Below, piece after piece: positions 60,510 to 64,000 of a stretch of DNA of 64,000 bases; positions within the stretch are counted from its first letter, which is position 1, and each line of letters begins with the position of its first letter. The notes under the pieces were generated by a model. It had not been told where the DNA came from and searched no databases. It saw nothing but the letters and a program-made list of their open reading frames with translations. The stretch comes from Sedimentisphaerales bacterium (lineage in GTDB: Bacteria > Planctomycetota > Phycisphaerae > Sedimentisphaerales > SM23-30), in NCBI GenBank assembly GCA_963666285.1, contig OY762711.1, one strand, 5' to 3'. Position numbers and translations under genes: made by a program.

Positions 60510-60912
60510 GAACCAGACTCTGAAGTATAGGTTAAACGCATCTTGCTATCTCGGACACACTAGTGGAAATATGTACATATAAAATTACATAACCCTTGTA
60601 AGGATATAAGGACTTTTTTAGATATGCTGTTTCTCTGGAAACAGTTTTTATTGAGTGGGAAACTAGGCAGAAATTGGACAGGGGACTGGGGAGGTTTGTC
60701 TTGGAATGGACAAGGCTGAGTGGGGGAGATTTATCAAGTCATTATTGTAATGTCTGGGGATGGGCATTAAAGTATAAGTTGATATCCCATCGTTATTTAA
60801 GTCTTTTAGGAAAGTATATATATTATGAGTATGATAAAGTTGCTGGTGAAAAAAATAAAGTTAAAATAATGTATGTTAAGAAATATTGTGAGATAGCATT
60901 ATAACTATAGTG

Positions 60913-61413
60913 ATGAAAATAACAGAAAATAAAATTTTAGAGATTTTGCTCAAGAGTCGTATGAAACTTACTGCTTATATACGTACTATTGTAGGGGATT
61001 TTCATTGTGCAGAGGATGTTTTCCAGGATGTTTCCATGAAAGCAATTCGCTCAAGTGAACAATTTAAAGATATAAAACATCTCGAGCGTTGGCTTTGGGT
61101 TGTATGCCGCAACGATGCGTTAATTAAGCAGAGAGAACAAAAGAAATTACCTGTTTTTATAGACAAAGATATATTGGATTCAATTCATGATGAGTTCCAG
61201 AAAACAAACCTTTATGATTTAAATGATACAGAAATAAAATTAGAGAAATGTTTAGGTAAGTTAACAGGTTTCTCCAGAAAACTGATCATGTTGAGATATC
61301 GTAAGAACTTAACTGGGCAAAAGCTAGCAAAAGAGCTGAATAGAAAAGTAGAGTCGATCTATGTAGCTTTGAGCAGGACTCATAAGACTTTACGAGAATG
61401 CATGAAGAGGTAA
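60913..61413 (+). CDS. ECF-type sigma-70 factor (planctomycete/verrucomicrobial type)
   Basis: Region 2 LTAYIRTIVGDFHCAEDVFQDV...WLWVVCRN; region 4 CLGKL...LIMLRY...LAKEL...VYVALSR...LRECM. Confidence 0.9.
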   Translation: MKITENKILEILLKSRMKLTAYIRTIVGDFHCAEDVFQDVSMKAIRSSEQFKDIKHLERWLWVVCRNDALIKQREQKKLPVFIDKDILDSIHDEFQKTNLYDLNDTEIKLEKCLGKLTGFSRKLIMLRYRKNLTGQKLAKELNRKVESIYVALSRTHKTLRECMKR

Positions 61414-61436
61414 TTAGCCAAAATGCTGGATAAAGT

Positions 61437-63170
61437 ATGAACCAGAAAAACGACAAAGAAATAAAAGACAAATTGGAAGAATTTGATTCACTTGTATATG
61501 CCTACTTTGATGGTATGGTAGATATACAGCAAATGGATGTCTTAAAACAATATTTGAGAGAAAAGTCATATGTTCGCAGGTTGGTAGATCTTTGTAGGCA
61601 CGACCAGTTGATTTATGAGTTAATGTCTTATGATGAACAGACGTTAGGTGATATTGAAACAAAAGTCTTTAGTGAAATCAAAGACGAAGGTAGTGTTTTA
61701 AAGGATTTAATTGCGTTAGAGCAGAATTCACCTGCAATTGAAATCCATAGCGAAGAGAAAAATATTGAAATCATATCAGAAATAGTTGAAAAAAAACAAT
61801 CTACGGGGAAATTTATTAAGTTGTATAATCGGATGATTTATATAGCTGCTGTATTTATGGTCATATTTATCGTTTATGCTAATGTTTTCCCCCCGCAATT
61901 ATCTGAAGAAGTAGCAACAGTGGTTGATCAATTGGATGTTAAGTGGGATATTTCTTCAGCTAAGCTAAAAAATGGTGAAAGAATACTAACTAATCAGTTG
62001 CCTTATAAGGTTGAGAAAGGGATAGTTAAGTTTTCTTATGATGAAGGAGTCGATGTTGTTATAGAAGGGCCAGCAGAGTTTACCGTAGAAAAGAAAGGTA
62101 TAACAATATCCAAAGGTCTTTTGTACTCGTATGTTTCAGAAGTTGGTCAAGGATTTACTGTAGATACTCCCAATAATCGGTTTATTGACCATGGCACAGA
62201 ATTTGGTGTTTATGTTGATCAAAATGCAACATCAGAGCTTCATGTTTATACTGGTGCAGTGCAATATTACTCCGGAATAAAAGGAGCTCCTAAGGCCAGT
62301 AAGACAATTAGAGCAAATAATGCTAGAAGGTTTGATGCAGATTCTGGGCAAATTCAAAATATACGAGTTGAAGAGAATTTCTTTGCCAGAGATGTAAATT
62401 CAAAAACAGGTATAATATGGCGTGGTCAGGATATAGATTTGGCAGATATTGTTGGCGGTGGTACTGGCTTCGGAGGTGGCGAGCTGGAAAGCGGTATTGA
62501 CGTTGAAGATGGTCAGTGGAAGAATAAGGAAGTGCTGTATAGACAAAACTTGAGTGTCGGATGGATAAGATATAGTGACAATAAATATAATAAGGTTCCA
62601 ACTATAGATTATATTGATGGTGTATTTGTTCCATATGATGCTAATGGTCCGGTTCAACTTTCATCAAAAGGGCATAAATATTCTGGTTTTCATGTAGGTA
62701 GTAACGAGCACTGGAACAATATTTGCTTTGGTGCCTGGCATGAATCAAGTCATGCACCTAAGCATAATTTGAGCTCTGAAGGTATAACTTATGGTTTAGA
62801 TAGTGATACGGCTGCAATTACAATACATTCCAATCAGGGAATTACTTTTGACTTAGATGCGATCAGGAAAAATATACCTGAAAGAAGAATCTCTAAATTT
62901 ACAACAAAAGTAGCGATTTCAGAATCGATATTATTTTTTGGCAAGGAAGACGGTGTCGAAGAAAATCCTTCAAAGGTTGACTTCTGGTGTTTTGTCGATG
63001 GCGAGCTAAGAGATAAGCAAGAAGGTATTACATATAGAGACGGGCTGGTTGAAGTTGAAATAGTCCTGGATGACAACGAAAGATATTTAACGCTCGTTGT
63101 AACAGAATCTGATGATAAATGTAGTTTTGACTGGGCTTTTCTTGCAAGACCGGTATTGGTTGTAGAATAA
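61437..63170 (+). CDS. FecR-domain anti-sigma factor with C-terminal NPCBM-like domain
   Basis: Cytoplasmic N-domain, TM (YIAAVFMVIFIV), FecR motifs GVDVVIEGPAEF, GFTVDTP, DHGTEFGV, LHVYTGAV; DLADIVGGG; HSNQGITFDLDAIR; RYLTLVVT..D...DW. Confidence 0.85.
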   Translation: MNQKNDKEIKDKLEEFDSLVYAYFDGMVDIQQMDVLKQYLREKSYVRRLVDLCRHDQLIYELMSYDEQTLGDIETKVFSEIKDEGSVLKDLIALEQNSPAIEIHSEEKNIEIISEIVEKKQSTGKFIKLYNRMIYIAAVFMVIFIVYANVFPPQLSEEVATVVDQLDVKWDISSAKLKNGERILTNQLPYKVEKGIVKFSYDEGVDVVIEGPAEFTVEKKGITISKGLLYSYVSEVGQGFTVDTPNNRFIDHGTEFGVYVDQNATSELHVYTGAVQYYSGIKGAPKASKTIRANNARRFDADSGQIQNIRVEENFFARDVNSKTGIIWRGQDIDLADIVGGGTGFGGGELESGIDVEDGQWKNKEVLYRQNLSVGWIRYSDNKYNKVPTIDYIDGVFVPYDANGPVQLSSKGHKYSGFHVGSNEHWNNICFGAWHESSHAPKHNLSSEGITYGLDSDTAAITIHSNQGITFDLDAIRKNIPERRISKFTTKVAISESILFFGKEDGVEENPSKVDFWCFVDGELRDKQEGITYRDGLVEVEIVLDDNERYLTLVVTESDDKCSFDWAFLARPVLVVE

Positions 63171-63250: not shown

Positions 63251-64000
63251 ATGAGAGCGCCAAGCGAAGCTAATGTAGTCAAGCCGGCCAATCCGGCATG
63301 GGTAAGGGCTAGCCACCCGCCCATTACAGCACCGGGCGTGCAGAGAGGTAACGAACTGTACGAAGCCCCGGGAAAGGAGTTTGTCAGCCACAACGCAAGT
63401 GAAGGTGTTGAGCCCCGAAATTATTCCTTATCGCATCCGGGCCAGGGTTTTCATATGCCTGAAGCCAATATCGATATATGCGAAATACGGCGAGCATCTA
63501 TCGACGAGCCGGGGTCTGAGTCCGTAGCGGGCAAACGAACTGACTGCATTGGAACTTGGGAGAACCGAAGTGCTCCGAAAGGAAGCGGCCAAGGAGCTGA
63601 AACCGTGACGCGGCCGTATGGCATTTTGGTAGTCGGACTGACTCATAGTAGAGGAGTAAACAGGGTAATGCCTGTTGAGTTTCGAAGTTTGAGGCACTCG
63701 AAGGGGTCAGCATTAATGTGTAAAGGCGAAACAGGATATTGGCCAGGCACTGAACTGGAAGAAACCATGAACGTTCCACAGCGTCTTCTATCGGATACTT
63801 CTACAAGGCACATTACTTTGCCTTATGTAGCCGTCAAAGTGAGCATTAATGAAGAGCCGGATGAGGGAAATCTTCAAGTCCGGTTCAGTGAGGGGCATGC
63901 GTTTCCTTGCACAAAATATAATGAAACTCAGAATTTGTTAAATTAATGAAAGGAGGCGACATGCCTACTCGACAAAAAAGAGGTTTTACATTAATTGAAT
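63251..64000 (+). CDS. Intron-interrupted prepilin-type (GFTLIE) gene, 5' part: join(63251-63254, 63974->64000)
   Basis: Ligated exons read ATG AAA AAA AGA GGT TTT ACA TTA ATT GAA = MKKRGFTLIE, the class III signal start of DUF1559-like proteins. It follows the ECF/FecR pair and runs off the window. Confidence 0.8.
63255..63973 (+). mobile_element. ORF-less group IIB self-splicing intron (719 nt)
   Basis: 5' GAGCG-CCAAG, with CCAAG pairing CTTGG (63555-63559); EBS1 TCATAT (63451-63456) is complementary to 5' exon ATATGA; D2 63564-63630; D3 63638-63710; short D4 63711-63851; D5 GAGCCGGATGAGGGAAATCTTCAAGTCCGGTTC (63854-63886, AGC triad, GAAA loop); D6 with bulged A 63967; 3' end AC. Confidence 0.9.

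Follow-up and report, generated by a model that had tools for sequence, protein, structure and literature searches.

A group II intron lineage at bacterial start codons with a putative translation start for the host gene in domain VI

Introduction

The usual explanation for the tolerance of bacteria towards group II introns is that these avoid genes or splice out. Here we describe a group II intron of 719 nucleotides (nt), devoid of an open reading frame (ORF) for an intron protein and hence called ORF-less, which lies at the start codon of a prepilin-type gene at the very end of a 64,000-nt stretch of DNA from a Sedimentisphaerales bacterium of the Planctomycetota (assembly GCA_963666285.1, contig OY762711.1); this whole stretch is called the window below. 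Comparative evidence, namely conservation, phase, covariation and choice of target, supports its assignment to a specialised group II lineage living at start codons, whose domain VI (D6) carries a Shine-Dalgarno sequence (SD) and an ATG in phase with the host gene. A reading frame that runs through the intron, together with a layout resembling translational coupling, is an added and so far unexplained feature.

The described introns closest in position form the IIB1 clade found at initiation and termination codons (Michel et al. 2007; examples are Avi.groEL and EcKTE56.groEL), as described in Gomes et al. 2025 (PMC12584367). The clade is characterised by a CL1 reverse transcriptase (RT) with a C-terminal endonuclease domain, by a subdomain Ia of 300-700 nt near the 5' end of domain I and by proteobacterial housekeeping genes as hosts (PMC12584367). 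The intron of the window resembles this clade in its insertion at or next to a start or stop codon (here ATGA/A in 8 of 8 genomic copies, the slash marking the insertion) and in the little harm done to the host frame; IIB1 introns in groEL recreate the stop codon (PMC12584367). It differs in three respects. The related RT found here has 443 amino acids (aa), with RVT_1 as its only domain match and no endonuclease, the RT being judged by its size and domain matches; the whole intron has only 719 nt, and alignment with relatives shows no insertion at its 5' end, where the bases correspond one to one; and the hosts are mostly secreted-type genes in non-proteobacterial lineages. Those passages of PMC12584367 that treat the IIB1 clade mention no start site inside domain VI. 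The intron thus shows neither the RT nor the subdomain Ia of IIB1 members and has only the start-codon placement in common with them.

ORF-less group II introns of Thermosynechococcus elongatus proliferate via the RT of a related intron in the genome (Mohr et al. 2010, PMC2882425). The intron described here is like them in the absence of an intron-encoded protein (IEP), in the presence of many near-identical copies and in the RT-bearing kin in its genome, and unlike them in its start-codon target, its built-in SD and ATG and the frame open through the ribozyme. Group IIC-attC introns contain internal outward-oriented promoters (PMC3001079) and are likewise mobile introns bringing expression signals to a downstream host gene; there, the signals are promoters and the targets attC sites, whereas here an in-phase translation start lies inside D6. 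Small endonuclease-less bacterial classes in the IIE/IIF size range have ribozymes of 450-700 nt without the IEP (PMC3753933), and the size without ORF found here, about 600 nt, falls inside this range, size alone being compared. No description of an SD and a start codon in domain VI was found in the full-text literature searched, which did not include Michel et al. 2007, a work that may bear on novelty. The text of the review by Zimmerly and Semper (2015) contains none of the terms 'start codon', 'Shine-Dalgarno' or 'ATG'.

Results and Discussion

The intron and the start signals of its domain VI have the following positions in the window:

63251..63254, plus strand: end of exon 1, consisting of the host start codon ATG and the A of codon 2; TATGA precedes 8 of 8 genomic copies
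63255..63973, plus strand: ORF-less group II intron, 719 nt (GAGCG...CUCGAC), matching RF02005 and RF00029 above their gathering scores, with ends shared by 8 copies
63854..63887, plus strand: domain V (D5), the catalytic hairpin, AGC triad at 63855-57, from Rfam alignments and fold
63890..63970, plus strand: expanded D6, 81 nt, with the anti-SD on its 5' strand at 63900-08 (CGTTTCCTT) and the bulged A63967, from the fold and an RNAalifold consensus
63946..63948, plus strand: upstream in-frame ATG, overlapping the stop of the frame through the intron (TAATG), from the sequence
63950..63956, plus strand: SD AAGGAGG on the 3' strand of D6, from the sequence
63961..63963, plus strand: D6 start codon, 13 nt before the 3' splice site and in phase 1 (the phase of ATGA/), from the sequence and relatives
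63974..64000, plus strand: start of exon 2 of the prepilin-type gene (..KRGFTLIE), which continues past the window end, from the ORF started in D6

Both parts of the ribozyme were recognised by Rfam models, D1-D4 by RF02005 (63288-63524; 112.2 bits, gathering score 49; E = 8e-32) and D5-D6 by RF00029 (63852-63973; 52.3 bits, gathering score 40; E = 3e-8; long insertion within D6). With a D5 that contains the catalytic triad and a D1-D4 core, the segment 63255-63973 is a group II ribozyme. A63967, bulged 7 nt from the 3' end in the minimum free energy (MFE) fold, is the branch-point candidate, and the 3' terminus of the intron is GAC at 63973.

A preliminary description of the window, made without database searches, had proposed that D6 carries a spare translation start for the host gene, hidden in its own stem. 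The unusual length of D6, given there as about 80 nt, was borne out, and AAGGAGG, ATG 63961, ATG 63946 and the frame leading into exon 2 had all been placed correctly; the two ATGs share one frame and are 15 nt apart. The proposed sequestration of SD and start codon agrees with the MFE fold of 63850-63980, where both are paired, the SD strand with 63900-08 and CAUGCC with GGCAUG. The energy of this fold is -47.5 kcal/mol as compared to -25.8 +/- 3.4 kcal/mol for shuffled sequences (z = -6.4), none of 200 shuffles being as stable.

The predicted product of the spliced RNA begins M-K-K-R-G-F-T-L-I-E, that of the unspliced RNA started in D6 M-P-T-R-Q-K-R-G-F-T. The leader M-K-K-R resembles those of 20 paralogous GFTLIE genes with an upstream in-frame ATG, two of which read M-K-K-K before the G. 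Pfam domain N_methyl (PF07963) was identified at residues 4-28 of the 274-aa protein started in D6 (locus L001, E = 2.9e-8), which fits the earlier idea that both routes give the same mature protein; the signal-peptide-like beginnings of 5 other host genes, judged by eye, fit it as well.

As the explanation that we favour and hold to be fairly probable, we propose a start-site-homing ORF-less intron with a D6 start that rescues the unspliced host gene and is probably unmasked by coupled ribosomes. Exon-binding site 1 (EBS1; UCAUAU) pairs with ..AUAUGA, which leads to insertion one base into codon 2 of ATG-AAx genes. Unspliced RNA would give host protein via the D6 AUG, with M-P-T-R-Q replacing M-K, and cleavage of the prepilin leader or signal peptide would erase the N-terminal difference; as most host proteins here have cleaved leaders (prepilin or signal-peptide-like), the mature product would be unchanged. 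The folded ribozyme would keep SD and AUG paired and thereby mask the start, and ribosomes coming from the host start would cross the intron frame, stop at TAATGA and reinitiate, which probably unmasks the D6 start. The 443-aa RT of two 1929-nt relatives would mobilise the ORF-less intron in trans. Use of the D6 start, coupling and mobilisation by this RT are the three steps that we infer from sequence features.

The pairing of SD and ATG in the splicing-competent fold would equally suit a splice-versus-translate switch, in which the D6 helix is a regulatory element that hides the start when the intron folds, so that expression then requires splicing, lets the D6 start act instead when conditions are unfavourable to folding, and in this way tunes expression or mobility; ribosome transit via the open frame and ribozyme folding would be the two mutually exclusive states of such a device. 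We consider a switch unlikely, as nearly the same protein results from both routes and leaves little to switch. Moreover, no ligand- or condition-sensing element was seen, and the host genes are mutually unrelated, which argues for a generic damage-limiting device rather than for regulation.

The proposal of a spare start gains support from homologous introns. Relatives were collected by an RT-protein search of genome contigs, from which the best 80 of 495 relatives were used, and from metagenome contigs with an 18-nt pattern for the D5-D6 junction that contains neither SD nor ATG (at least 120 stretches). The pool comprised 123 distinct sequences of D6 plus exon 2, own genome excluded, after 27 junction hits without a recognisable 3' end had been dropped. 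A D6 of at least 55 nt was classified as long; an ATG was counted at -13 or -16 and an SD 3-12 nt upstream of it. The pool was divided as follows:

Long D6 with ATG at -13/-16 and SD: 38 of 123
Long D6 with such an ATG and no SD motif: 3 of 123
Long D6 without such an ATG: 19 of 123
Short D6: 63 of 123, of which 5 with ATG and 0 with SD

The class with ATG and SD differs from the other introns also in what follows. Its exon 2 begins with A in 36 of 38 cases, as compared to 28 of 85 for the others, and is open for at least 100 codons in the frame of the ATG in 13 of 28 cases versus 0 and 2 of 28 in the other two frames; for the remaining introns, the three frames gave 2, 4 and 3 of 43. Exon 1 could be compared in introns with both ends known, where it ends with ATGA in 8 of 10 introns with D6 ATG and SD (the exceptions being ACGG and ATGT) and in 0 of 5 with a 31-nt D6. 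The RT-bearing relatives showed the same association: an expanded D6 containing AGGA or GGAG, together with an ATG at -13, was found without exception in those at least 64% identical in their RT (L017-L023, L026), and those 51-59% identical (L024, L025, L027, L077) have a 31-nt D6 with ACG or GGG at -13 and other targets. Where ATG/CAU of the long D6 replaces ACG/CGU of the short one, both sides of the pair have changed. A separate subgroup, 6 of 35 distinct D6s, combines GAGGTG with an ATG at -16, in the same phase.

Among the 35 distinct D6s of the class, which had been selected for carrying an SD, this sequence lies 5-11 nt before the ATG in all 35. In their MFE folds, pairing covers the complete SD in 18 of 35 cases, with an average of 85% of SD bases, and the complete ATG in 31 of 35. 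The RNAalifold consensus of 16 D6s comprises 16 predicted pairs in two helices; 5 of these pairs show compensatory changes, and all 5 belong to the helix of SD and anti-SD. A natural test is offered by genome G024, where a 5'-truncated copy has neither 5' splice site nor EBS1. Downstream of it, the frame of its D6 ATG continues without a stop for at least 468 aa, up to where the locus ends, and this ORF has a signal-peptide-like start. As SD, ATG, its phase and its pairing recur in diverged relatives, their combination in the window is more than chance, and the conservation of SD, ATG and frame relative to exon 2 supports the spare start of the preliminary description.

Part of this conservation might have a structural origin, with the AUG as an element of the basal D6 helix, the purine run as a helix strand and the host expressed only after splicing. 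Such a by-product would agree with the pairing of both elements, with D6 expansions of 115-124 nt that have no in-frame ATG and with those 5 of 63 short D6s that carry an ATG at -13 or -16 without an SD. It would leave unaccounted for that the purine strand is always the 3' one and stands 5-11 nt before the ATG while its partner covaries, and that ATG and SD are tied to the ATGA/ target, to an A at position +1 and to ORFs in that single frame. The independent ATG at -16, which preserves the phase, and the long ORF after the 5'-truncated copy argue in the same direction, and we regard a purely structural origin as distinctly improbable.

Three further groups of D6 were observed among the relatives. 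A sister group with a 37-nt D6, without SD and ATG (L132, L143, L146, L169, L173, L175, L204, L210, L234), lies directly 5' of an SD-like GGAGG or GAGG followed 6-12 nt on by an ATG, so that its target is the ribosome-binding site itself and not the start codon. A distal module (..GGTTTGAATATTGTGGCACTC..CCGAAAGG..GAGAAACAGAGAAAACAAA..) is common to the D6s of 115-124 nt, both with and without SD and ATG; it is found in L017, L019, L023, L026, L099, L101 and L110 and also in L136, L155, L166, L223 and L239. A D6 variant of L156, L202, L212, L222 and L200 has AAAGGAG, followed after 8 nt by CTG or TTG at -13. The ATG that belongs to the host gene of L222 is located 8 nt into exon 2, in the same frame.

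Recognition of the target involves the following sites:

63249-50 joined with 63251..63254, plus strand: intron-binding site 1 (IBS1; AUAUGA); EBS1 covaries with the exon end
63424..63429, plus strand: candidate EBS2 (UUCCUU), complement of the SD-like AAGGA(A) upstream of the target ATG, in a loop of the alignment
63451..63456, plus strand: EBS1 (UCAUAU), partner of IBS1 AUAUGA, in a homologous loop at intron position 192-199

The intron starts with GAGCG, where the aligned sequence of its relatives is GUGCG, GUGUG or GAGUG (the group II norm is GUGYG). In relatives from other genomes the canonical GTGCG or GTGTG follows directly after ATGA, and in 15 of 18 introns with different exons a complement of the last 5-7 exon bases was found at one homologous loop. 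Comparison with these relatives places the 5' splice site after ATGA (63254/63255) and the insertion thereby one base into codon 2; the junction is based on EBS1 covariation and on the boundaries of relatives, as no intron-less site was found. None of the DNA contigs from 4 runs bridged such an empty site, only collapsed repeat copies and loose paralogue ends being recovered. In genomes of the same genus or family, comparison with exon 2 of the prepilin-type gene recovered nothing beyond the conserved prepilin N-terminus, and the homologues of the host gene encoding an esterase were only 38-42% identical.

Two other assignments were discarded. The element CUCAUAGUAGAGG (63643-55) is invariant among relatives with other exons and is not EBS1, which lies at 63451-56. 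A 5' splice site directly after ATG would lead the spliced host ORFs into early stops, as judged by eye, and is also contradicted by the relatives that begin with GUGCG after ATGA.

The genome of the window (G000, 6.35 Mb) contains 8 full copies of the intron with 99.6-100% identity and three sequence variants, and each of the 8 has ...TATGA as its 5' flank and A as its 3' flank. This fixed phase of insertion brings every copy's D6 ATG at -13 into the frame of exon 2. ORFs of 86-515 aa follow seven of the 8 copies in the phase that ATGA/ dictates, and Pfam domains in that frame were identified in 5 of 7 host ORFs scanned: N_methyl, transglutaminase-like, HlyD, DUF3472 with GH16, and BD-FAE (esterase). 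The combination of an SD-like 4-mer with an ORF of 80 or more codons was found at 6 of the 8 insertions, as compared to 394 of 6259 TATGAA sites genome-wide (6.3%); this enrichment indicates that something beyond EBS1 directs the intron to gene starts. AAGG or AAGGA precedes 7 of 8 insertion sites at variable spacing, and we infer that EBS2 (UUCCUU) pairs with this SD-like AAGGA(A) upstream of the target.

Besides the full copies, genome G000 harbours a decayed copy with a 71-nt deletion, one 5'-truncated RT-bearing copy, one 5' fragment and two 1929-nt relatives. The latter are 85% identical to the intron over D1-D3, differ from each other at 2 positions and encode a 443-aa RT, which matches only Pfam RVT_1 (residues 93-322) and no HNH or other endonuclease family. 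The intron has no RT ORF, RT-bearing kin in its genome and multiple copies, as is characteristic of an ORF-less intron mobilised in trans, and its eight near-identical copies imply recent mobility.

Two of the copies (c3 and c4; G000:C1:3630865-3634538) lie 3 kb apart at the starts of the neighbouring DUF3472+GH16 and BD-FAE esterase genes. The RT-bearing copies, the decayed copy and copy c7 lie within purine-rich repeated intergenic elements (GAAGGATGA.., AATTATGAATGCTGAATTATGA / AATTAAGA), located in G000:C1 near 910721, 5397267, 5748538, 1613560 and 5266367 (loci L008-L013) and containing the target motif several times. These repeats may serve as landing pads for the intron.

The frame of the host gene does not end where the intron begins:

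63251..63946, plus strand: open frame from the host ATG through the intron, 231 sense codons, ending with the stop TAA at 63944-46, which is followed by an in-frame TGA at 63947-49

Over the first 230 intron codons no stop occurs in the host frame, as compared to 14 and 20 in the other frames; 0 of 20,000 dinucleotide-preserving shuffles were without a stop (mean 11 stops), and the frame is uninterrupted in each of the 8 copies.

Translational coupling by a masked SD is known from bacteria, where it involves a stop-start overlap such as TAATG and a hairpin opened by the upstream ribosome. The intron shows the layout of such a coupled start: the stop TAA 63944-46 overlaps ATG 63946 and precedes the SD by 4 nt and ATG 63961 by 15 nt, and the anti-SD strand 63900-08 falls inside the frame through the intron. 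It differs from masked-SD coupling in that the upstream 'gene' is a ribozyme. A frame ending at TAATGA next to the SD suggests coupling by termination and reinitiation. Edgell et al. (2011, PMC3073962) state that ribosomes are excluded from most group I introns by an early in-frame stop, and the arrangement found here, with the frame open throughout, is the opposite.

The translation of the frame matches 252 database proteins. One of these, a protein of 230 aa with 69% identity, shares both the M-R-A-P start and the end. Among the matches listed, roughly 40 of 120 clusters comprise about 195 aa and start at an internal ATG, and more than 60 clusters comprise 131 aa (P0054-P0120) and derive from RT-bearing introns. 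Of 13 ORF-less-type sequences fetched, 11 have their end in common, ..LLN immediately ahead of the D6 SD. An excess of shorter proteins was not found, as the range of 30-126 aa gave 176 hits and most of the 120 listed had 105-126 aa. In the nucleotide sample, 7 of 11 elements of the D6-ATG clade have at least 121 codons free of stops in the frame crossing the ribozyme, as compared to 10-30 codons in 5 of 5 short-D6 relatives. With moderate confidence, we attribute these open frames to selection for ribosome transit, which appears most complete in the ORF-less intron family.

A related arrangement was seen in the RT-bearing introns L017, L020, L022, L167 and L189, where a frame of 126-146 codons extends across D1-D3 (about intron position 98-497) and starts at an ATG about 15 nt past the stop of the host frame (stop, GAGG, 9 nt, ATG). 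The frames of RT-bearing introns end at or beside the RT start, for example with an 11-nt overlap ATG...TGA or with a stop just before the SD of the RT gene, and the D1-D3 frame looks like a leader ORF coupled to the RT.

These frames permit a wider interpretation, which we put forward tentatively as a possible extension rather than as our main proposal: the lineage might have evolved to let ribosomes through rather than to exclude them, in a relay of stop-SD-start junctions that leads from the host ATG via about 29 codons, the D1-D3 frame of about 131 codons and the RT gene to the D6 start, with these steps fused into one 231-codon frame in the ORF-less derivative. If so, the ribosome would be handed back to the host gene in the right phase, insertion at the start site would keep the translational control of the gene and escape polarity, and splicing would be needed only for intron mobility.

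Alternatively, the start signals could serve the intron, ribosome loading and transit protecting its RNA from degradation or premature termination and the rescue of the host being incidental. The contrast in open frames between D6-ATG elements and short-D6 relatives would be expected in this case, as would the frame of about 131 codons ending at or beside the RT start in RT-bearing relatives, and a paper entitled 'Group II intron-ribosome association protects intron RNA from degradation' (PMC3851717) is, by its title, in keeping with such a role. As a benefit to the intron leaves the phase of the D6 ATG with exon 2 and the ORFs in that frame unexplained, we judge it very unlikely. That the 231-codon frame, long and open as it is and with its 252 database matches, encodes a real intron protein is hardly credible, because its conserved residues track conserved ribozyme motifs such as D5, no match listed has a precomputed Pfam domain and the start varies among relatives between the host ATG and an internal ATG.

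Several observations weigh against a rescuing D6 start unmasked by coupled ribosomes. Regarding the start itself, its use is deduced from sequence comparison, as no RNA run containing this DNA was listed, 19 of 60 long D6s have no in-frame ATG, exon 2 is open for less than 100 codons in 15 of 28 members of the ATG and SD class, and the SD-to-ATG spacing of 4-5 nt in the window is short. ATG and purine-rich strand are structural parts of D6, for which some conservation is expected even without a coding role, and the copies and relatives are kin, so that the counts obtained from them are not independent. Copy c7 and the RT-bearing copies sit outside genes. Regarding the frame, most relatives lack it in full length, with a stop at codon 29 for 8 of 10 members of the clade and at codon 4 for the RT-bearing and decayed copies of genome G000, and the database proteins were ascertained by being open. 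A six-frame search of 400 other genomes of the phylum gave matches in 4 genomes, which were weak and contained stops, and hence no unbiased sample. Finally, each protein would come at the cost of translating 231 junk codons, and ribosomes passing through should prevent the ribozyme from folding.

A lineage that hits the most sensitive spot of a gene and yet supplies an in-phase SD and start would have taken another route to harmlessness. Gene models starting with M-P-T-R-Q or M-S-T-R-Q would be accounted for, and annotators should be aware that the 'leader' of about 100 nt upstream of such starts would be a ribozyme. Such introns would also provide a model from nature for gene-targeting introns that leave the targeted gene functional. 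If the frame through the intron works as a coupling device, the rule that ribosomes stay out of self-splicing introns would be reversed, and the interplay of translation, folding and splicing would be open to simple reporters.

Directly upstream of the prepilin-type gene, the window contains at 60910-63170 two ORFs of 167 aa and 577 aa, which by eye look like a pair of sigma factor and anti-sigma factor.

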